DNA of 27,194 bases, taken from positions 1-27,194 of the forward strand of contig CAZVGP010000002.1 in assembly GCA_964626715.1 (NCBI GenBank). The letters are read 5' to 3'. The notes below the pieces were generated by a model. That model was not told the DNA's origin. It saw only the letters and a list, made by a program, of their open reading frames with translations, and did no database searches. The translations under genes were made by a program, and so were the position numbers. Position 1 is the stretch's first letter; each line of letters begins with the position of its first letter. Below, piece after piece: positions 190-27,116 of the stretch. The DNA is from an uncultured Candidatus Saccharibacteria bacterium. GTDB taxonomy: Bacteria; Patescibacteriota; Minisyncoccia; Phycocordibacterales; Phycocordibacteraceae.

Positions 190-1329
190 ATGCGCATCTT
201 AGTGGCAACCGGGCTCTATCCGCCTGATGTGGGCAGTTCTGCGACGTACGCAAAGGCGCTCGAGGGGGGACTCCAGAAGGAAGGGATAGCGGTCTCGGTA
301 CTTCCGTTTTCGCGCGTGCGCCGATTGCCGATACTCATCCGGCACCTGCGGTATTTTTTTCTCGCGCTTCGCGAAGGGAAACACACGGACGTCATCTACG
401 CGCAGGACCCGTTTTCGGTCGGACTTCCCGCGTTTTTCGCGGCGCGCCTCTCGGGAAAGAAGTTTGTGCTCAAAGTGGTGGGCGATTTCGCGTGGGAGCA
501 GGCGGTGGAGCGGTTCGACTTTGCCGGCACGCTCGAGGCGTTCCAGAAGGCGGAGCTTTCGCTTCTGCCGGGCATGATGCGATGGCTCGAGCGCTTCGTC
601 GCCCTGCGGGCAGAGCGCATTGTCGTGCCGTCAAAGTACCTCGGCACCATCGTCGGGCGATGGGGCGTTCCCAAAAAAAAGATCGCAGTCATTTATAACG
701 GGATGGAGGAGCTCGCTGATCCCGGAAACAAGCCGGTTCTGCGCGGCCTTCTCAAATTCCACGGGAAGCTCATCATCTCCGTGGGCCGTCTCGTGCCGTG
801 GAAAGGCTTCGGCGCGCTCATCGGCATGCTTGCCGGCATGAAAAAGGATTTTCCGGACCTGAAGCTCATGATCGTCGGCAACGGACCCGACCTCGCGACC
901 CTTGAGGAAGAAGCGAAGCGGAAAGGAGTCGCGGACGATGTCATTTTCACGGGAGCTCTGCCGCGCGACGTCTTATTGCGGTATATCAGAGCGTCGGACC
1001 TCTTCATTCTCAATAGTAGCTCCGAAGGGTTTTCGAACCAACTTTTCGAAGCCATGGCCATCGGCGTGCCTCTTATCGCAACCAAGGTCGGAGGAAATCC
1101 CGAAGCGATAGCGCATGAAACAGAGGGTTTTCTGGTTTCTCCGAACGACACGGCACGGATCGAAGGATACGTGCGCGCGCTTTTTTCCGACTCTGGCCTC
1201 CGCACGCGGATCATTTCTGGTGCAAAGCGGAAAGTCGCGGAGTTCTCGGAGGAGCGGATGCTTTCTGAAACCGCGAAGCTCCTCAAAAAACTATGCCCGG
1301 TGACTACAACTTCGGATCGCTTCTCATAG
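190..1329 (+). CDS. Glycosyltransferase family 4 (GT-B)
   Basis: N-terminal MRILVATGLYPP, ISVGRLVPWKG, and EGFSNQLFEAMAIGVPLIATKVGG (E-x7-E motif). The last ~11 codons are read from an inserted element. Confidence 0.93.
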   Translation: MRILVATGLYPPDVGSSATYAKALEGGLQKEGIAVSVLPFSRVRRLPILIRHLRYFFLALREGKHTDVIYAQDPFSVGLPAFFAARLSGKKFVLKVVGDFAWEQAVERFDFAGTLEAFQKAELSLLPGMMRWLERFVALRAERIVVPSKYLGTIVGRWGVPKKKIAVIYNGMEELADPGNKPVLRGLLKFHGKLIISVGRLVPWKGFGALIGMLAGMKKDFPDLKLMIVGNGPDLATLEEEAKRKGVADDVIFTGALPRDVLLRYIRASDLFILNSSSEGFSNQLFEAMAIGVPLIATKVGGNPEAIAHETEGFLVSPNDTARIEGYVRALFSDSGLRTRIISGAKRKVAEFSEERMLSETAKLLKKLCPVTTTSDRFS

Positions 1330-1439
1330 GTGTGCGGGCATATATTCTAAACATCGTAACTAACCAAGAACATGAAACAATCTAGGGGAAAAGTGAGTGA
1401 AGCCTTCACACATAATCCGAAGTTGTAGTACCGGGTATG
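1292..1439. mobile_element. E1: inverted-repeat-bounded, MITE-like insert with TATG direct repeats
   Basis: Left IR cccggtgactacaacttcggat (1296-1317) and right IR atccgaagttgtagtaccggg (1415-1435) are perfect except for one extra base. TATG at 1292-1295 and 1436-1439. Confidence 0.75.
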
Positions 1440-1548
1440 CACCCCGTTAGATATCAAGAAATATATTCCTGCTGTTGTATAGAAACATATGAATGAGTCG
1501 CACAGAATATCGAATGCAAGCTCTCACGTCCTATCTAACGGGGTGAAC
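1437..1548. mobile_element. E2: inverted-repeat-bounded, MITE-like insert (CCCGTTAG...CTAACGGG subfamily)
   Basis: Perfect 14-bp IR caccccgttagata (1440-1453) / tatctaacggggtg (1532-1545). Flanks ATGCAC / GTGAAC; AT-rich interior. Confidence 0.75.
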
Positions 1549-2610
1549 GCCATCATGCTTTCCACAGACCGGACGATCCTTGATGCGGACTCTCCCGCGC
1601 GGGCGAGGATGGAGGAGTATGCCGCCGTTCTCGGGAAGCTTTCGATCATCGTGTTTTCGCGCCGCGCGCCGTTCTACGCGCCGACGGTGGGCGTGCCGCT
1701 GTCCATATATCCGACGAATTCTTTTTCGCGCGTTTCGTACCTTCATGATGCGGAACGCATCGGCCGCACGATAGGAGGCGCGGATGTCGTTACCGCGCAA
1801 GATCCGTTTGAAACGGGGCTCGCGGGTCTTCGCATCGCACAAGCGCTCGGCGTCCCGCTCCATGTGCAGGTGCACACGAACTTCCTCGCTCCCGGATTTC
1901 TCGCCGCGCACTGGCCCTTGAACTGGGTCCGCACCATGATCGCCGGTTTCGTTGTCCGTCGCGCCGCGCGCATCCGTACGGTAAGCGAGAAGATCAAGAA
2001 GGCTCTCGAAAAACATTATCCTCGTCTGCACGCTCCGATTTCCGTGCTTCCGATTTTCGTCGATTTGCAAAAATACCGGAATATCGCCAGAACCCGTCAT
2101 CCGAAGTTTAAAACCGCGCTTCTCATTGTGTCGCGGCTCGAGCCGGAAAAAAGAGTGGCGCTCGCGGTTCGCGCCTTGAAGAAGGCGCGCGACGCGGGAT
2201 TCGAGGCAGGACTCACGATCGTCGGCTCCGGAAGCGAAGAGGGAACACTGAAACGCGAAGCAGGACGGCTCGGCATCTCGGCATGGGTCGAATTCGCCGG
2301 ATTTCAGAATAACCTCATTCCGTATTACGCTGTGGCGGACGTCCTCCTCTATCCCGGAGCGCCCTATGAGGGCTTCGGGATGGCGATTATCGAGGCCCTT
2401 GCGGCGGGAGTGCCCGTGCTTGCGGAGGATGTCGGCATCGCGCGACAGGCAGGGGCCGAAATCGCCGAAGGCGATTTCGGCGAGGCCCTGATGAGCCTCC
2501 TTAAAAAAGAGCCTCAAAGAGCGACGTTACTCTATCAACCCTACCAGAGTAAGGAAGAGTATTTGAGAAAGTTCAAGGAGGATCTCACGATTTCAAGCAC
2601 CCATGGATAA
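1543..2610 (+). CDS. Glycosyltransferase family 4
   Basis: VSRLEPEKR and EGFGMAIIEALAAGVPV motifs. Start placed at GTG 1543 (MNAIMLSTDRTIL) immediately after E2; the track start at 1489 lies inside E2. Confidence 0.9.
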   Translation: MNAIMLSTDRTILDADSPARARMEEYAAVLGKLSIIVFSRRAPFYAPTVGVPLSIYPTNSFSRVSYLHDAERIGRTIGGADVVTAQDPFETGLAGLRIAQALGVPLHVQVHTNFLAPGFLAAHWPLNWVRTMIAGFVVRRAARIRTVSEKIKKALEKHYPRLHAPISVLPIFVDLQKYRNIARTRHPKFKTALLIVSRLEPEKRVALAVRALKKARDAGFEAGLTIVGSGSEEGTLKREAGRLGISAWVEFAGFQNNLIPYYAVADVLLYPGAPYEGFGMAIIEALAAGVPVLAEDVGIARQAGAEIAEGDFGEALMSLLKKEPQRATLLYQPYQSKEEYLRKFKEDLTISSTHG

Positions 2611-3571
2611 AAACATCGTCACCATCGGTGGAGGCACCGGCACGTTCGTGGTTTTGTCCGGCTTGAAACAGCTGCCGAATGTTTCTCTCTCTGCCATCGT
2701 CTCGGTTTTGGATGACGGCGGTTCAACGGGGCGCCTGCGGGATGCGTACGGATTTTTGCCGCATGGCGACGCGCGGCAGGCCTTGATCGCGCTTGCGGAC
2801 GAGCGGGCATCACTCACTCGTGCGCTCTTCGCGTACCGCTTCTCAAAAGGCGACGTTGCCGGACACAATTTCGGGAATCTTTTTTTGACGGCTTTGACTG
2901 ACATACTCGGCTCTGACGCAAAAGCGATCGAAGCGGCCTCTGCGGTACTTCGCGTCAAAGGCAGTGTGATTCCCGTTTCAGAAAAGCCGGGAACCTTGGT
3001 TGCGAAGCTTCAAAACGGCGAGACGGTGGTCGGCGAGCACGCCATCGATACGCGCACGCCGGGGCGTTCTCCCATTGTCGCTTTGTCGACTAAAGAGCCA
3101 GCCGAAGTCTGTGCAGACGCGAAGCAGGCGATTGCCCACGCTGACATGATTATTCTCGGACCGGGCGATCTCTATGCCTCTACGCTTGCGAATTTTGCCG
3201 TCAGCGGCCTTGCTGAAGCGGTCAAACATTCCCCTGCGCGCCTCCTCTATATCGTGAATCTGTTCACCAAAGCGGGGGAAACAGACGGATACTCTGCGAG
3301 AAAGCACGTTGCAGAAGTTACGCAGTACGCGGGCAGGAGGCCGGATGTCGTTCTTCTGCATACCGGAGCATTTGTGAAAGACGTGCTTGATCACTACGCG
3401 GAAGAGAAGGAATTCCCCGTGGCTGATGATCTGGGTTCCGACCCTTCGGTTATCCGCAGCGATTTCGCGGATGTGATGGTTGCCGAGAAAGTCGCTGGCG
3501 ATACGATAGCGAGGAGTTTTATCCGTCACGACCCACGAAAAGTCGCTGAAAGCATTGCTGCATTGCTATGA
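2603..3571 (+). CDS. yvcK: YvcK/GlmR (CofD-like, UPF0052) UDP-GlcNAc-binding protein, copy 1
   Basis: IVTIGGGTG, DDGGSTGRLR, GD.RQAL.AL, GHNFGNL, IILGPGDLY, FIRHDP motifs. Confidence 0.92.
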   Translation: MDKNIVTIGGGTGTFVVLSGLKQLPNVSLSAIVSVLDDGGSTGRLRDAYGFLPHGDARQALIALADERASLTRALFAYRFSKGDVAGHNFGNLFLTALTDILGSDAKAIEAASAVLRVKGSVIPVSEKPGTLVAKLQNGETVVGEHAIDTRTPGRSPIVALSTKEPAEVCADAKQAIAHADMIILGPGDLYASTLANFAVSGLAEAVKHSPARLLYIVNLFTKAGETDGYSARKHVAEVTQYAGRRPDVVLLHTGAFVKDVLDHYAEEKEFPVADDLGSDPSVIRSDFADVMVAEKVAGDTIARSFIRHDPRKVAESIAALL

Positions 3572-3660
3572 ATCCCGTTAGAGATTACCACATGGTCGAA
3601 TATTTATGCATCATTACCATGATACGGAAACCTCTGGTTTCCTATCTCTAACGAGATGAA
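3568..3660. mobile_element. E3: inverted-repeat-bounded insert with ATGAA direct repeats at the yvcK1/yvcK2 junction
   Basis: IR atcccgttagagat (3572-3585) / atctctaacgagat (3644-3657), 1 mismatch. ATGAA at 3568-3572 (contains the yvcK1 TGA) and 3656-3660 (yvcK2 start). Confidence 0.75.
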
Positions 3661-4768
3661 GGACAAAACCAGACTCAGTAGCATCCGCCGCGTCTCATTT
3701 CATGTGAGGGATATCTTTCGGCCCTCGAAGGATGCGACGGGCCGTCTGCGCGCGCTTAAAAATGCTGTCATCTCCGGCGGCGACTTTATTGCGAACAAAA
3801 AACATGTGGTCACTGTGGGCGGAGGCACCGGCACGTTCGTGGTCCTCTCCGGTCTCAAAGGGCTTCCGGGCGTCTTACTTTCGGCTATTGTGTCTGTCGC
3901 TGACGATGGGGGTTCGACCGGGCGCTTGCGGGACGCATATGGCTTTCTGCCGACCGGCGATGCGAGGCAGGCCCTCGTTGCTCTTGCGGAAGAAGAGGAA
4001 GAGGAGAATATCCTGCGGGATCTTTTCACGTACCGTTTTCCCAAAGGCGATATCGCGGGGCACAACCTCGGCAATCTTTTCTTGACGGCCTTGCGCGACC
4101 GGCTCGGCTCAGAAGGCGCTGCCATACGCGCCGCTTCCGAAATCCTTCGCGTGCGCGGCTCCGTTGTTCCGGTATCGGAGCATCCCGCAACGTTGGTAGC
4201 CACGCTTGTAAATGGAGAGACAATCGTTGGCCAGCATGCGTTGAATGCCCGCGGAGCCGGCGGCCCTCCCATTACTTCGCTGAGAATCGCAGAGAACCTT
4301 TCCGCATCAAAGGGTGCAAAAAAAGCCATTGAATCGGCGGATATGATTATCTTAGGTCCCGGAGATTTATATACTTCAACGCTCGCGAATTTCGCCGTCC
4401 CGGGCCTCACTGAGGCGGTCGCTCACAGCAAAGCGGTTCTGGTGTATTTCGTAAATCTCTTTACCAATGCGGCCGAGACGGACGGCTACGGCGCCCAAAA
4501 GCATGTCGCAGAGATCACCCGCTACGCGGGCAGAGCGCCTGATGTCATTTTTCTCCATACCGGCGAATTGCCTGATGAGGTGCGTGCGTACTACGCCGGT
4601 AAGAAGGGCTTTCCTGTTGTGGATGATCTTCAGGGTGATCCAACCGTTATTCGAGGGTCGTTTGCAAATCCCGTCATCATCCCGAAGACTGAAACAGACG
4701 TCATCGACCGCTCCCTCATCCGCCACGATCCGACGAAAGTTGCGGAGGCGATTCGGAAGCTCCTATGA
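3656..4768 (+). CDS. yvcK: YvcK/GlmR family protein, copy 2, with a ~45-aa N-terminal extension (start uncertain)
   Basis: Same motifs as copy 1 (VVTVGGGTG, DDGGSTGRLRDAYGFLP, GHNLGNL, LGPGDLY, LIRHDP). Confidence 0.9.
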   Translation: MKDKTRLSSIRRVSFHVRDIFRPSKDATGRLRALKNAVISGGDFIANKKHVVTVGGGTGTFVVLSGLKGLPGVLLSAIVSVADDGGSTGRLRDAYGFLPTGDARQALVALAEEEEEENILRDLFTYRFPKGDIAGHNLGNLFLTALRDRLGSEGAAIRAASEILRVRGSVVPVSEHPATLVATLVNGETIVGQHALNARGAGGPPITSLRIAENLSASKGAKKAIESADMIILGPGDLYTSTLANFAVPGLTEAVAHSKAVLVYFVNLFTNAAETDGYGAQKHVAEITRYAGRAPDVIFLHTGELPDEVRAYYAGKKGFPVVDDLQGDPTVIRGSFANPVIIPKTETDVIDRSLIRHDPTKVAEAIRKLL

Positions 4769-4906
4769 CCCCGTTGTGAAGTTTGGCAATACAATAAGAA
4801 ACATGCAAAATATTTTATCAGATACAGAAAGGTTCAGAAGGTTTTTCGATGTTTCAGGTTGTGCTCGCGAGGCGAGCGTTGCCAAACTCTACAACGGGGT
4901 ATGACC
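4764..4906. mobile_element. E4: inverted-repeat-bounded insert with 7-bp TATGACC direct repeats
   Basis: IR accccgttgtgaagtttggcaa (4768-4789) / ttgccaaactctacaacggggt (4879-4900), 20/22 match. TATGACC at 4764-4770 and 4900-4906. Confidence 0.82.
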
Positions 4907-5422
4907 TATTTTCTGGATTTTGATCGGACGCTGTTTGATACCTCGGCCTTTCTCGCGTATATCGTAGAACGCGATGGATTGGATGAACTTCGATCGAAAA
5001 CCGAGGTCGAGATGGCGGCACGTCTCAATGGTCCCGTGGCGGAAGGCGCAATCCGTTTTGAGAAGGACGAACTCGCGCAGTTCCTTTTTCCTGATGCCGC
5101 GGTGTTTCTCAAGGCACACGGGAAGGAATCGGTTATCGTAACGGCGGGGAATCCTGCGCTTCAAAGAGCAAAATGCGAGAATGTCTTTGCGTCCTATCCG
5201 ATCTTCGCTATCATCTACGCGGATGATGAACGGAAGGGACCGGTGCTCGCGAAAGTGGCCGGTTCGTTCCCGAAACCTTGGATTTTTATCGACGACAAGC
5301 CCGCCGAGCTTGAGTCAGTGGTTGTCCTGCTACCTGAAATGTCCGTCTATCAATCCGGTCGCGGCACTCTTCCTGTGTTGGGAGCGTACCCGGTCATCCA
5401 TTCGCTTGCCGAGCTCCCATGA
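4901..5422 (+). CDS. HAD superfamily hydrolase
   Basis: MTYFLDFDRTLFDT (DxDxT motif I), IVTAG (motif II), FIDDK (motif IV). Start at ATG 4901 right after E4; the track start at 4859 lies inside E4. Confidence 0.85.
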   Translation: MTYFLDFDRTLFDTSAFLAYIVERDGLDELRSKTEVEMAARLNGPVAEGAIRFEKDELAQFLFPDAAVFLKAHGKESVIVTAGNPALQRAKCENVFASYPIFAIIYADDERKGPVLAKVAGSFPKPWIFIDDKPAELESVVVLLPEMSVYQSGRGTLPVLGAYPVIHSLAELP

Positions 5423-5489
5423 ACCCTGTTAGGTATCAGGAGGTGCTTGTGTACATGAATAACCCACGTCCATTATCTAACGGGATGAA
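5419..5489. mobile_element. E5: short inverted-repeat-bounded insert with ATGAA direct repeats, in frame with the downstream gene
   Basis: cctgttaggta (5425-5435) / tatctaacggg (5474-5484), with two G-T pairs. ATGAA at 5419-5423 and 5485-5489, offset 66 nt. Confidence 0.7.
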
Positions 5490-6516
5490 GCTTCTCATCG
5501 TGACGCAGGCAGTCGATCGGGAAGATCCGATCCTCGGGTTTTTTCATCGCTGGATCGAGGAATTCACGAAGCACTGGGATCGCATTGAAGTCATCTGTCT
5601 TCGAGAGGGGGGACACGCGCTTCCGGGAAACGTGCGCATACATTCTTTAGGCAAAGAGCGCCCATCTGCGCATGCAAACGGCGCGCTCCGCCGCCTCGTA
5701 TACGCATGGTGCCTTCTCAAGCTCGCGTGGCAGCTTCGCCGCGGCTACGACGTTGTCTTCGTGCATATGAGTCAGGAGTATGTCCTTGTTGCCGGATGGT
5801 TTTGGAAACTCTTGGGAAAGAAGGTGTATCTGTGGCGGAATCACTACGCAGGTTCCCTAGTGACCGACGCGGCTGCGCTTTTCTGCCAAAAGATTTTTTA
5901 TACCTCCGTGCATTCGTACACTGCAAAATATGCTGACGCAGTGCGCATGCCGGTCGGGGTCGATACAGTGAGGTTCTGTCCGGACACCCGCGCCAGACGC
6001 GTGCCGCGCTCGATCCTCTTTCTTTCACGCATGGCGCCCTCGAAACGCGCCGGCATGCTCATCGAAGCGCTCGCGATGCTCGCGCGCCGCGGCGTCGATT
6101 TTTCCGCTTCTTTCGTGGGCTCTCCTCTTTCTCAAGACGATGCATATTACGAATCGCTGAAGCAGCGCGCAAAGATCGCAGGCATCGCCGAACGCGTTTC
6201 CTTCTTGCCGGCCGTACCAAACGTCAAGGCTCCGGCGCTCTATCGCACCCATGAGATATTCGTGAACTGCTCTCCCTCCGGGATGCTCGACAAGACCATT
6301 CTTGAGGCGGCGTCCTGCGGGTGCATAGTACTTGCCTCGAGCGCGGATTTTGCCCTAGTAGCCGGCCCGGAGTATCATTTTGCAACGGCAGAAGAGCTTG
6401 CCGGAAAGATAGCAGCGAATCTCGGGCATACTCCGGCCGAAACGCTTTCCCTGCTTGTACCGGCGCATGCGCTTCCGGCGCTGGCTGCTCGCCTCGCTCA
6501 AGAGATGCGATCATGA
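5485..6516 (+). CDS. Glycosyltransferase family 4
   Basis: MKLLIVTQAVD start, LFLSRMAPSKR, GMLDKTILEAASCG. Could alternatively start at 5419 with an element-derived 22-aa extension. Confidence 0.88.
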   Translation: MKLLIVTQAVDREDPILGFFHRWIEEFTKHWDRIEVICLREGGHALPGNVRIHSLGKERPSAHANGALRRLVYAWCLLKLAWQLRRGYDVVFVHMSQEYVLVAGWFWKLLGKKVYLWRNHYAGSLVTDAAALFCQKIFYTSVHSYTAKYADAVRMPVGVDTVRFCPDTRARRVPRSILFLSRMAPSKRAGMLIEALAMLARRGVDFSASFVGSPLSQDDAYYESLKQRAKIAGIAERVSFLPAVPNVKAPALYRTHEIFVNCSPSGMLDKTILEAASCGCIVLASSADFALVAGPEYHFATAEELAGKIAANLGHTPAETLSLLVPAHALPALAARLAQEMRS

Positions 6517-7313
6517 GTACCAGCACCATCCCTTGCACTGTCGCCATTCTCACGAAAGATTCCGCCTCGACTCTTGAACGGGTGCTTGAAAGCGTGAAAG
6601 GTTTTTCGGACATCATCGTGTGCGATGGCGGCTCGACCGATGAAACGTCTAGAATCGCATATGCCTTCGGCGCACGCGTGATCCGGCAGGATGCCCGCTT
6701 TCTCGATGCCGAAAGCCGCATCGCCGATTTTGCCGGGGTACGCAACCAGACCCTGCACGCGGCGCGCGAACGCTGGTTTTTCTTCCTGGATTCTGATGAA
6801 GAGGCAAGTCCGGAGCTCGTTTCTCGTATCCGCGAAATCGCCACAGACTCGAAGATAGCAGCCTATTGGATCGCGCGACTATATGAATACAGAGGAGTGC
6901 GCATCACGTGCTCCGCGAGTTATCCTAATCGGCAGATACGCTTTTTCCATCGCGAAGGCGTCACGGGTTTCCGGAAAAGAGTCCATGAGCGGGTCGCCAT
7001 TTCCCCCGAAACTCCGATACGGGCTCTTTCCGAGGCAATCCTCGTCCCGGTTTCGGAAGACCAGGAAATCCTTGCTGCAAAGACAGAGCGGTACCTTCGC
7101 ATGGAGGTTGAGCGTCTCGCGGGAATCGGCCCCGCAGCGCTTCGCAGAGGTGTTTTTGACGGCGCAAAGAGCGTTCTGAGCTGGATCGCGCGCTTCGCGC
7201 ACAGCGCGCTTTTCTGCCACGGCACGTGGCTGCCGCTTTCATACGAATTTCGATCGGTACGTTACCAAGTCGCGCTTGTGAGAATGTTACTTGCACGTCT
7301 TTTCAATATATGA
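6513..7313 (+). CDS. Glycosyltransferase family 2 (LgtF/KdtX-like beta-glycosyltransferase)
   Basis: IIVCDGGSTDET, WFFFLDSDE (DxD), RQIRFF, VHER. Start at ATG 6513 overlapping the upstream TGA (ATGA). Confidence 0.88.
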   Translation: MSTSTIPCTVAILTKDSASTLERVLESVKGFSDIIVCDGGSTDETSRIAYAFGARVIRQDARFLDAESRIADFAGVRNQTLHAARERWFFFLDSDEEASPELVSRIREIATDSKIAAYWIARLYEYRGVRITCSASYPNRQIRFFHREGVTGFRKRVHERVAISPETPIRALSEAILVPVSEDQEILAAKTERYLRMEVERLAGIGPAALRRGVFDGAKSVLSWIARFAHSALFCHGTWLPLSYEFRSVRYQVALVRMLLARLFNI

Positions 7314-24195: not shown

Positions 24196-24301
24196 GTATA
24201 CCTCATGAGAGGAGTTCGAGAGGGATAGGCGTATGCAAATTCCATACCCGGTGCCCGCCGTACGTCTGCTCCTCTTCCGGTTTTTTCTCTCACGGGGTAT
24301 A
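24196..24301. mobile_element. D: inverted-repeat-bounded insert with GTATA direct repeats in the wzx/ligase divergent intergenic region
   Basis: IR atacctcatgagag (24198-24211) / ctctcacggggtat (24287-24300), 12/14 match. GTATA at 24196-24200 and 24297-24301. Confidence 0.6.
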
Positions 24302-24303
24302 GT
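24298..24303 (+). promoter_or_regulatory. -10-like TATAGT, 7 nt upstream of ATG 24311 (possible leaderless promoter)
   Basis: ggggTATAGTaggcggcATG. Confidence 0.45.
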
Positions 24304-24310
24304 AGGCGGC

Positions 24311-26566
24311 ATGCACACGAATGATTGGCTTCGGTGGAGCATAATCGGCGGCATCCTCCTCGTCTTTTTCATTCCGCTTTTCGTCACGAATACCCTGTTC
24401 TTCCCGTTTATCACGGGGAAGGGTTTTGCGTTTCGTATCATCATTGAAATAATCTTCGCGCTGTGGTGCATCCTCATCTTGCGCGATCCTTCGGCGCGTC
24501 CGAAAAAATCTTTGCTTCTGTATCTTGTCGGCGCGTTCCTCGTCTTGCTGGGCATCTCCGCGATTTTCAGCGCAAACCCCGACAAGAGCTTCTGGTCGAA
24601 TTTCGAGCGCATGGAAGGATGGATCGGCATCGCGCACGTGGTCGCGTACTTTACGATTCTCTTCTCGACCTTCATCTCCGAGAAGCTGTGGAAACTTTTG
24701 TGGAATACGACCATCGGAGTGTCGGTCATTGAAGCCCTGTACGGTATCCTCCAGCTCACGCATGTATTCCCGATAAACCAAGGCGGCGTACGTCTCGATG
24801 GCACATTCGGGAACGCGACGTACCTCGCCGTCTATATGCTCTTTAGCGTTTTTGCGACCTTGCTCGCCTTTGTATGGTGGGGAAGAGGGGAAACCGCGAG
24901 GTCGCGCACCGCCGCACTTTCCTATGCGGTCGCATTTATTCTTCAGCTCATCATCATCTTTTACACCGCGACGAGGGGCACGATCCTCGGGCTGGTAGGC
25001 GGCTTGTTTCTTGCGGGAATCATCTTTCTGCTGTTTTCCAAAGGGAACAAAAACCTCCGCGGGTGGGGTGTGGCCGCGATCATCGCGATATTCATTCTTG
25101 TGGGCGGTTTTTTTGTCCTCAAGAATACGTCGTTCGTGCAGGGAAATGAGGTTTTGACGCGCATCGCCAGCATTTCGCTTTCCGAAGGCGCGACTCGCTT
25201 CACGATCTGGGAGATGGCATGGAAAGGCTTCATCGAAAGTCCCAAGACCATCGTAATCGGTTGGGGACAGGAGAGCTTCAACTACATCTTCAACAAATAC
25301 TATGACCCGTCGCTGTATGCGCAGGAGCCGTGGTTCGATCGCGCGCACAACGAGTTCATCGACTGGCTCGTCGCGGGCGGCGCAATCGGGTTTCTGCTCT
25401 ATCTCTCGCTCTTTGCGACGTCGCTGTGGTATCTCTTCTGTCCGGGCGGAGCCTTCAGCGCGATCGAGCAGGGCCTCTTTACGGGTCTCCTCGGCGCATA
25501 CGTCTTCCATGACATGTTCGTTTTCGACAACCTCATGAGCTACGTATTGTTTTTCACCGTGCTTGCCTACATCGCGTATCGTTCACGCGCATCGCGGCTG
25601 GCATCGGCGATGCCTCCCGCGGGAGCATCTTCGCCCGCCGCCGCTGCGCAGCACAGCATGTGGAATGCGCCGCTTTCTCCAGAGCTCTCCGCAATTGCCG
25701 CTCCGTGCATTGTCGTTTTCATGGCAATCGTGTTGTACTTCGTGAACGTCCCGGGCATTGCGACGGCATCGAACATCATCCAAGGAATCACATCCCACTC
25801 GGAGGGAGTGCAAACTAACTTCGACTATTTCAAGAAAGCCGTGACCAGTGCGGGAAATGGGGGCTTGGGCCTTCAAGAAGTCCGCGAGCAGATCACGCAG
25901 TTCGCGTTCCAAGTGAAGCATCTCAATGCCGGCGACGCCACGCTCCAATCTGCTGTCGATGGGTTCGTACAAGCCCAGATGAGCGCGCAAGCGGGAGCGA
26001 CGCCAAACGATGCTCGCATCCGGGAATTTTTTGGCACGTACCTCATGCAGACAGGAAAGACGGATGCGGCGCGCACGGAGCTTCTCGCCGCGCACAAGCT
26101 TTCACCCGATAAGCAGCAGATACTCTTCGACCTCGGTACTCTTGAAGAAAACGCCGGGAACTCCGGCACAGCGCTCAATTGGCTCAAGCAAGCGTACGAT
26201 CTTGCGCCCGCCTTCGACACCGCGCGCCTCATGTACGCCGCGGGAGCAATCCGCACGGGCAACCTCTCGCTCGCATCGTCCTTACTTGTGCCGCGCTACG
26301 GAACCATGACACCGGATGACGACAATGTTCTTACGGCATATCTTACCGTCAAGAATTACCAAAGCGTTCTCATGATCCTTAAAGCCCGCGTTGATGCCAA
26401 TCCGGGAGATTATAACGCTCACGTGAATCTCGGTGCCGGTTACTTGCAGTCTGGCGATACCGCAGACGCCATCGCCGAGCTGCAGAAGGCGATCGGCCTC
26501 AATCCGTCGTTCCAGTCCGAAGGGCAATACTATATCGATCAGATCAACGCCGGGAAGCTTCCGTAG
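24311..26566 (+). CDS. O-antigen ligase/Wzy_C-family membrane protein with C-terminal TPR repeats
   Basis: GTFGNATYLA, YTATRG, GWGQESF, DRAHNEFIDWL..GG.IG motifs; C-terminal TPR helices (AIAELQKAIGLNPS). Start placed at ATG 24311. Confidence 0.88.
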   Translation: MHTNDWLRWSIIGGILLVFFIPLFVTNTLFFPFITGKGFAFRIIIEIIFALWCILILRDPSARPKKSLLLYLVGAFLVLLGISAIFSANPDKSFWSNFERMEGWIGIAHVVAYFTILFSTFISEKLWKLLWNTTIGVSVIEALYGILQLTHVFPINQGGVRLDGTFGNATYLAVYMLFSVFATLLAFVWWGRGETARSRTAALSYAVAFILQLIIIFYTATRGTILGLVGGLFLAGIIFLLFSKGNKNLRGWGVAAIIAIFILVGGFFVLKNTSFVQGNEVLTRIASISLSEGATRFTIWEMAWKGFIESPKTIVIGWGQESFNYIFNKYYDPSLYAQEPWFDRAHNEFIDWLVAGGAIGFLLYLSLFATSLWYLFCPGGAFSAIEQGLFTGLLGAYVFHDMFVFDNLMSYVLFFTVLAYIAYRSRASRLASAMPPAGASSPAAAAQHSMWNAPLSPELSAIAAPCIVVFMAIVLYFVNVPGIATASNIIQGITSHSEGVQTNFDYFKKAVTSAGNGGLGLQEVREQITQFAFQVKHLNAGDATLQSAVDGFVQAQMSAQAGATPNDARIREFFGTYLMQTGKTDAARTELLAAHKLSPDKQQILFDLGTLEENAGNSGTALNWLKQAYDLAPAFDTARLMYAAGAIRTGNLSLASSLLVPRYGTMTPDDDNVLTAYLTVKNYQSVLMILKARVDANPGDYNAHVNLGAGYLQSGDTADAIAELQKAIGLNPSFQSEGQYYIDQINAGKLP

Positions 26567-26681: not shown

Positions 26682-26824
26682 GGGCCCCGCACTGAGACTT
26701 GGCGCTATGTTTTTTGCGAAGCTGTTTGATTGCCTAGAAGCCAGATTCTATCGAGCATTTGAATATTCAAAGGGATACAAACTTAAAACATGCTTCGCGG
26801 CGCCAAGTTCTAGTGACGGGGCCC
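26682..26824. mobile_element. A: 143-bp inverted-repeat-bounded element
   Basis: gggccccgcactgagacttggcgc (26682-26705) / gcgccaagttctagtgacggggccc (26800-26824), plus inner gcgaagc/gcttcgc pairing; AT-rich centre. Confidence 0.65.
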
Positions 26825-26967
26825 GCCCCGTAGTGAGCTTTTGGCGTGCGGCGCTTCGCCATATGCCTCAAGTCAAATTTTGAAAGTTGTAGAGTATTGC
26901 AATAGATATAATCTCTGCACACTATGGCGCCGTAACAGGCATAACGCCAAAAGTCTACTCACGGGGC
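26825..26967. mobile_element. B: 143-bp inverted-repeat-bounded element abutting A
   Basis: gccccgtagtgagcttttggcgt (26825-26847) / acgccaaaagtctactcacggggc (26944-26967); AT-rich centre. Confidence 0.65.
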
Positions 26968-27010
26968 GGGGTCTTGTGTTTTGAGGAGTTGCCTCCGGTC
27001 TTCTGAAGCC

Positions 27011-27116
27011 GTACACCCCATGAGATAGAGCTTTATTCCCGGAGTTTTCCCTCACTGTGCCTTTAAGGTTTTTCTGCGAATAAAGAATATTGTAGGTTTC
27101 TATCTCACGGGGTACA
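27011..27116. mobile_element. C: inverted-repeat-bounded insert with GTACA direct repeats
   Basis: accccatgagataga (27015-27029) / tctatctcacggggt (27099-27113), 14/15 match. GTACA at 27011-27015 and 27112-27116. Confidence 0.7.

Follow-up and report, generated by a model that had tools for sequence, protein, structure and literature searches.

The five short inserts E1–E5 lie at gene junctions between 1.3 and 5.5 kb of a 27,194-nt stretch of DNA from an uncultured Candidatus Saccharibacteria bacterium (assembly GCA_964626715.1, contig CAZVGP010000002.1; this whole stretch is referred to as the window). With a probability of about 0.8, they are gene-less derivatives, akin to MITEs (miniature transposable elements with inverted repeats), of very small mobile elements common in the candidate phyla radiation (CPR)/Patescibacteria, the full-length forms of which carry a GIY-YIG nuclease gene. 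The window is contig C2 of a groundwater-metagenome genome of 770 kb, which was assembled into 139 contigs and is 81% complete. For comparison, a set of 33 genomes of the same genus was used, in which gene order is kept at a DNA identity of ~65–70% to this genome.

Structure and setting of the inserts

A preliminary description of the window, made from its letters, had reported five inserts with terminal inverted repeats and flanking direct repeats at these junctions. The sites, coordinates, arms and direct repeats were all reproduced, and the observation was correct in every particular that could be checked. The features are as follows:

1296–1435, forward strand: E1, of the CCCGGT...ACAACTT family and without a gene; arms 21/22 nt long, one indel; TATG at 1292–1295 and 1436–1439.
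1442–1543, forward strand: E2, a CCCGTTAGA-family copy with C...G termini; perfect 14-nt arms at 1440–1453 and 1532–1545.
3573–3656, forward strand: E3, a CCCGTTAGA-family copy between two CofD/YvcK paralogues; 14-nt arms with one mismatch.
4769–4899, forward strand: E4, a CCCGTTGTRRAG-family copy; 22-nt arms, 91% complementary.
5424–5485, forward strand: E5, a short degenerate CCCGTTAGA-family copy; arms of ~11 nt with two mismatches.
6513–6516, forward strand: an empty ATGA stop/start overlap that served as comparator, with further empty ones at 7310, 12186 and 15986.

The terminal inverted repeats of E1–E5 are of the CCCG...CGGG type, with measured arms of 11–22 nt, in agreement with the lengths first given, and the interiors of E1–E3 are AT-rich, as had also been stated (GC content 0.38–0.41 vs 0.53 for the genome). 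E2 is flanked by ATGCAC and GTGAAC (left TGCA at 1438–1441, right TGAA at 1544–1547), and the rebuilt start of the second GT4 gene is the GTG at 1543, at the right end of this insert. ATGAA stands on both sides of E3 (TGAA repeat at 3569–3572 and 3657–3660), the last base of which, A, joins the following TG to form the ATG at 3656, and likewise on each side of E5 (TGAA repeat at 5420–5423 and 5486–5489). E4 has TATGACC on each side, in part overlapping its arms, with a TATGA repeat at 4764–4768 and 4900–4904. At E3–E5, the upstream TGA is retained in the left copy of the repeat and the downstream ATG is supplied by the right copy, and the earlier statement that neither gene is broken was upheld.

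The inserts are distributed among six co-directional genes (g1–g6) at 190–6516, which encode two GT4 proteins, two CofD/YvcK paralogues, a HAD-like protein and a third GT4 protein. The first GT4 gene covers 190–1329, and its last 11 codons read into E1. A recount agreed that four of the five gene junctions between 1.3 and 5.5 kb are filled, g2/g3 at 2603 being empty, and the four ATGA overlaps listed above are all empty, as originally reported. The window encodes no transposase, also as reported; E1 has a nuclease-bearing relative in another part of the genome.

Coding relatives with the same ends

That relative was found on contig C117, where E1-type arms and ATG repeats enclose a 98-aa open reading frame (ORF) that matches Pfam GIY-YIG (E 9e-16). 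The duplicated ATG on the left serves as the start of this ORF, and a TAA within the right arm closes it. The right ATG is the start of a host gene, and just upstream there is a promoter-like site of the host. E1 aligns to this element over both ends and ~80 nt of the left interior, as would a derivative formed by internal deletion.

Small GIY-YIG ORFs occur in 31 of the 33 genus genomes. At locus L031, CCCGTTAGA arms spanning 282 bp, with an ATGAA repeat, enclose a GIY-YIG ORF that ends at the TGA of the new ATGA; at L027 the gene lies within E4-type arms and at L030 within CCCGTGAGAT-type arms, and GIY-YIG units with further repeat types were found at L025, L032 and L035. These full-length relatives measure ~280–300 bp and consist of two terminal inverted repeats and one ORF for a single-domain GIY-YIG protein of 85–98 aa, the repeats being arms that pair with each other over the entire unit and not one hairpin each. 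For the CCCGTTAGA and CCCGGT families, the nuclease ORF begins at the left duplicated host ATG and ends inside or at the right repeat, with TAA or with the TGA of the new ATGA; some families do not borrow the host ATG, their ORF being opened by one of its own just within the left arm. The Pfam GIY-YIG domain spans most of each protein, the core Tyr, Arg, His and Glu columns are invariant (alignment A1), and the nearest PDB sequences are the UPF0213 proteins 1ywl and 1zg2. The preliminary description had pointed to possible longer copies carrying a transposase, RAYT or nuclease: the nuclease was found, and it is the only gene in the same-ended coding elements, none of which encodes RAYT or a recognised class of transposase.

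A profile search returned at least 591 relatives in public genomes, mostly from Patescibacteria of many lineages, with some labelled Omnitrophota, Planctomycetota and others. Among the best 80 of these loci, arms of at least 10 nt were present in 61, mostly spanning ~264–287 bp, a host start was adjacent in 45, and arm variants changed jointly on both sides. A comparison of the nuclease tree with the repeat variant gave weak clustering of the GTAC and GATA variants from too few columns and was not used as evidence. As a separate observation, an 86-aa GIY-YIG ORF at L022 (contig C4 of its genome, 865–1125, minus strand) lies immediately upstream of a tRNA gene, is flanked on both sides by a direct repeat (11 nt) of the tRNA 5' end and looks like a tRNA-targeting relative.

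Occupied and empty alleles

The gene junctions were compared at the syntenic loci of seven same-genus genomes. The g1/g2 junction at L018 reads CTATGAAC, matching the prediction from removal of E1 and E2, and the g4/g5 junction (E4 site) at L015 has exactly the sequence predicted on removing E4 and one copy of its repeat; g4/g5 is also empty at L016, L017, L019 and L020. At g3/g4 (E3 site), L015 shows an empty overlap of the CTATGAAG type, and L016 is empty too. The g5/g6 junction (E5 site) is empty at L013, L015, L016 and L020, and is occupied at L017 by a 127-nt copy and at L018 by a 105-nt copy of a different subfamily. Counting E5, three genomes thus hold different copies at this junction, which was hit at least twice independently.

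Contigs from the source metagenome contain, in addition, a low-depth allele (9 vs ~27–45) in which 1295 is joined to 1553 via ten other letters, that is, a clean ATGA junction without E1 and E2. No empty allele of E3–E5 was seen in this metagenome. Occupied and empty alleles thus exist, the spread is patchy (13 of the 33 genus genomes), and the inserts are mobile. The proposal of non-autonomous, MITE-like mobile inserts accordingly held, being matched by empty orthologous ATGA junctions of exactly the predicted sequence, by ends that recur elsewhere and by the metagenome allele that lacks E1 and E2.

The only joint at E4 in the metagenome was considered as an empty allele and rejected, as it derives from other repeat copies (sides of 18–20 nt) and not from the E4 locus. 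In high-depth short contigs with different flanks from metagenome runs X1, X2 and X4, the arms at 4768–4787 and 4881–4902 are joined via only 29 other letters, so a much shorter E4-type derivative must be abundant elsewhere in the community. At the g5/g6 junction of L014 (genome G017; ~2256–2813), an insert of ~550 bp contains two small ORFs which, by eye, resemble an antitoxin/toxin pair.

Insertion at start codons

For analysis of the target, 78 CCCGTTAGA copies were pooled, 60 from eight genus genomes and 18 of the ~20 in this genome. In 65 of the 78, ...CGGG is followed at +1 by the ATG or GTG of an open stretch of at least 60 codons, compared with 1.3% of random positions (P ~1e-108) and 35% of ATGAA-like pentamers (P ~2e-18); ATGAA-like pentamers are only ~8% start-like. 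Within this genome alone, such a start codon stands at +1 in 15 of 20 copies, again against 1.3% at random positions (P ~1e-24). After removal of the inserts in silico, the in-frame stretch upstream of the +1 ATG was at most 20 codons in 42 of 64 copies, and these ATGs are therefore real starts.

The 5-nt flanking repeat is identical on both sides in 37 of 64 copies and matches at four of five positions in 15. It reads ATGAA (32), ATGAG (8), GTGAA (6), ATGGA (5) or ATGCG (4), and its variable positions co-vary between left and right (ATGAA, ATGAG, ATGCG, ATGGA). Because copies with C...G termini have ATGAA on the left and always GTGAA on the right, the simplest reading for the CCCGTTAGA family is a 4-bp duplication (TGAA) in which the last base of the element becomes the first base of the rebuilt start codon. 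The register of the duplication differs by family, with TATGA for E4 and (T)ATG for the E1 type; across families it measures 3–5 bp and covers the ATG every time.

A preference for ATG(A) junctions with translational coupling had been proposed, of which the ATG at the target stands and the overlap itself does not: only 20 of 64 oriented copies have an upstream gene that terminates in the TGA of the left ATGA, and in 24 of 64 no upstream gene ends there. What the copies have in common is therefore the start codon (ATGRR), which is the target; the stop/start overlap in itself is not. The end next to the host start is the one with the variable GC hairpin or, in a second subfamily, the TTTTGCCAGA-type end; this applied to all oriented copies, with orientation scored by eye from the copy table and not by script.

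Terminal-repeat families in the genome

A genome-wide scan for inverted repeats revealed several families with CCCG...CGGG ends. The preliminary description had treated the five inserts as one family; instead, E1, E2/E3/E5 and E4 belong to three separate terminal-repeat families, each with its own nuclease-bearing relative. The CCCGTTAGA...TCTAACGGG family has ~20 copies in this genome, including E2, E3 and E5, while the CCCGGT..ACAACTT family includes E1 and the CCCGTTGTRRAG family E4; families of the ACCCAGC type are further members of the repeat set. The ends recur both genome-wide and genus-wide: the paired-end CCCGTTAGA pattern gave 12 matches per strand in this genome, against none for the reversed control, and was detected in 13 of the 33 genus genomes with 1–22 copies each, the reversed control again matching nowhere. 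Interiors are 55–80% identical to the nearest copy, with E2, E3 and E5 at ≤61%.

The GTATAC-CCCGTGAGAT family consists of nested double hairpins, often at contig ends, with units of 50 and 71 nt observed at C1:2744–2904, C24:5897–5967 and the ends of C36 and C24. The fragmentation of the genome into its contigs falls at repeats, and these double hairpins probably cause much of it. Further inserts were noted in the window. One of the CCCGTGAGAG type (24196–24302), with imperfect arms and GTATA on each side, lies just upstream of the ATG at 24311, and this family seems to reside on TATA-like sequences, not on start codons. Three inserts with CCCCG...CGGGG ends stand in a row in one gene-free region (~26684–26825, 26826–26970 and 27013–27115), the last of them of the CCCATGAGATAGA type.

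Reading frames and predicted RNA folds

The left arm of the inserts provides TGA and TAG stops in two frames, and the right arm a TAA, in addition to the TGA in the rebuilt ATGA. The frames of 58 copies without a gene, each 95 nt or longer, were analysed. The one that begins at the left ATG is free of stops in 31 of these, compared with 4 and 0 for the other forward frames and 4, 16 and 5 for the reverse frames, and in 27 copies it ends at a TAA 4 nt before the host ATG. In E3, it corresponds to the following feature:

3568–3651, forward strand: relay reading frame of E3; left ATG overlapping the upstream TGA, 27 codons, TAA in the right arm 4 nt before the ATG at 3656.

With E5, an in-frame insert of 66 nt, initiation at the ATG at 5419 would lengthen the product of the GT4 gene starting at 5485 by 22 residues. 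The E2 frame opened by the ATG at 1437 stops at the TGA at 1494–1496 and overlaps another ATG, at 1489, which is in frame with the gene and reads into it, and in E4 the frame has only four codons and is followed by a very stable stem. A conserved micro-peptide was considered and discarded, the peptides agreeing solely at the ends encoded by the arms (MNPVR... and ...SYL/F). The data suggest that the kept feature of the left-ATG frame is translatability, not a protein; the open-frame signal is graded as no more than suggestive because the shared ancestry of the copies inflates it.

Predicted RNA folds of E1–E5 are closed in each case by the arms, with z-scores from -2.3 to -5.5. The predicted energies are -44.7 kcal/mol for E1 (z -4.1), -31.3 for E3 (z -4.1) and -56.7 for E4 (z -5.5).

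Proposed mechanism and its weight

In the mechanism that we propose, the GIY-YIG nuclease would recognise the paired ends and the ATGRR target and would drive the movement of full-length and gene-less copies alike, while the joining and fill-in that make the duplication would be performed by host repair or replication. Insertions would be tolerated as the upstream gene receives stops (TGA, TAG) from the left arm and the last base of the element, together with the duplicated TG, restores the start codon downstream. Ribosomes would be relayed across the insert either along a translated open frame with its stop 4 nt ahead of the host ATG or through an in-frame extension, and the terminal stem may bring the original ribosome-binding region near the new ATG.

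Several points weigh against this explanation. Neither transposition nor nuclease cleavage has been observed for these elements, and GIY-YIG enzymes are known as nucleases, not as strand-transferases, which leaves the joining step unexplained; joining must therefore come from the host. The enrichment at start codons could largely reflect selection after insertion instead of targeting, and the open-frame signal is partly confounded by the common descent of the copies. The empty E3–E5 sites belong to other species at ~65–70% DNA identity, not to strains. Judged by the divergence of their interiors, the copies in this genome are old, and decayed copies were under-sampled because the searches demanded near-intact ends. 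Finally, a coding copy of the CCCGTTAGA family was not found in this genome, at its completeness of 81%.

Beyond the origin of the inserts, we give even odds to the broader proposition that these elements constitute a new class of prokaryotic transposable element. Its sole protein would be a GIY-YIG nuclease of ~90 aa and, at ~280 bp, it would be the smallest autonomous DNA transposon known; it would capture host start codons, lack a promoter and, in two families, a start codon as well, rely on host-gene signals for expression and pass ribosomes on to the host gene.

Alternative explanations

The inserts could be MITEs that depend for their movement on a conventional transposase (DDE or similar) absent from the assemblies, the GIY-YIG gene being cargo or a separate passenger that shares the ends. 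Terminal inverted repeats with target duplications of 3–5 bp are the classic mark of DDE transposition, and the genome is 81% complete and broken at repeats into its 139 contigs, both of which speak for this reading. However, the DDE_Tnp_1, TnpB and tyrosine integrase models match nothing in the genome and rve remained below threshold, the best 80 public loci typically enclose ~264–287 bp with just the nuclease ORF, and a GIY-YIG gene of its own accompanies each of several repeat families, which together render this explanation unlikely.

We consider it very improbable that the inserts evolved in place as cis-regulatory RNA leaders or processing hairpins, fixed and non-mobile. Stable terminal stems, a constant orientation and position at the start codon and the retention of an open frame would all suit such leaders, but not the empty orthologous sites with co-varying flanking duplications, the patchy presence among species or the coding relatives with the same ends. 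No Rfam family matched the inserts, a search proposed in the preliminary description: Rfam 15 gave no match at the gathering score or the E-value threshold, and a single chance-level match fell outside the inserts. The leader reading is thus contradicted as an origin; a secondary regulatory role after insertion may still apply. A riboswitch or ribozyme origin, raised by conserved interior motifs and a compensatory hairpin, was rejected because of the target duplications and empty sites.

Least probable of all is the spread of REP/BIME-like hairpins by the genome's Y1 (RAYT/IS200-like) transposase. A Y1_Tnp gene is present at C21:8040–8685, and the repeats under study do form hairpins, but the palindrome on both sides of that gene is an unrelated one of its own, with only ~5 copies in the genome, and the inserts carry co-varying duplications, which movement of the IS200/IS605 type does not leave. 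The gene itself (Pfam Y1_Tnp, 34.6 bits), with its palindrome of ~29 nt on both sides, forms a separate small REP-like system. Integron attC sites were also considered and dismissed: the order GTTAGA ... TCTAAC has the reverse polarity of RYYYAAC ... GTTRRRY, and the genome contains no match to Phage_integrase.

Comparison with known systems

In the literature searched, which did not cover ISfinder, we found no description of this type of element and no published named family with these ends, consistent with the preliminary description, in which no named insertion sequence or MITE family had been recognised. The inserts have generic marks of MITEs, namely terminal inverted repeats, a duplication that varies with the site and presence/absence polymorphism. 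Bacterial MITEs that are co-transcribed as hairpins include the Correia elements of Neisseria, ERIC and RUP, with which the inserts share small size, terminal inverted repeats, target duplication, many copies, intergenic position and a stable RNA stem. In contrast, known MITEs have as their parents insertion sequences whose transposases are recognised, whereas the only gene of the coding elements here is that of a GIY-YIG nuclease; the targets of known MITEs (such as TA) are not start codons, nor is their orientation to the neighbouring gene known to be fixed. IS200/IS605 and REP/RAYT elements are similarly very small and hairpin-dependent, with gene-less derivatives that outnumber coding copies, but they depend on HUH Y1 enzymes and subterminal hairpins and produce no target duplication, unlike the GIY-YIG elements with duplications described here.

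Free-standing GIY-YIG homing endonuclease genes, such as the phage seg genes and I-TevI, likewise place a selfish GIY-YIG gene between or within host genes; however, they encode DNA-binding domains and are not known to have terminal inverted repeats, target duplication or gene-less miniatures. Insertions in CPR rRNA genes that encode GIY-YIG proteins and are not introns have been noted as unlike homing (PMC11270868).

The closest published system found is the Ssn family of single-domain GIY-YIG single-strand nucleases of ~94 aa, with cognate NTS/SRM hairpin repeats on either side of their genes (Chenal et al. 2025, PMC11893778). These repeats exist in hundreds of solitary copies, and the authors call the layout IS-like and suggest domestication. 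A single-domain protein of similar size (85–98 aa here), the inverted repeats flanking the gene and the many solitary copies are held in common. The present elements differ in that the two ends pair together as the terminal inverted repeats of one unit of 280–300 bp, in that target duplications of 3–5 bp co-vary, and in that copies sit on start codons in a single orientation, where the ORF can borrow the host ATG. Target duplications, insertion at start codons and MITE-like derivatives are unreported in the part of PMC11893778 covered, and a term search of it returned no mention of start codons or MITEs.

Implications

For annotation, inserts of this kind break assemblies, shift predicted starts and yield false N-terminal extensions, exemplified here by positions 1489 and 5419 and by the tail of the first GT4 gene. 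Small repeat-specific nucleases may also serve as tools, as has been argued for the Ssn family. If the nuclease does mobilise these elements, it would represent a class of transposase beyond the DDE, DEDD, HUH, serine, tyrosine and Cas1 types, and the minimum size known for an autonomous mobile element would fall. Start-codon capture illustrates a route by which a selfish element can persist in a compact genome with almost no intergenic space, leaving the genes unbroken.

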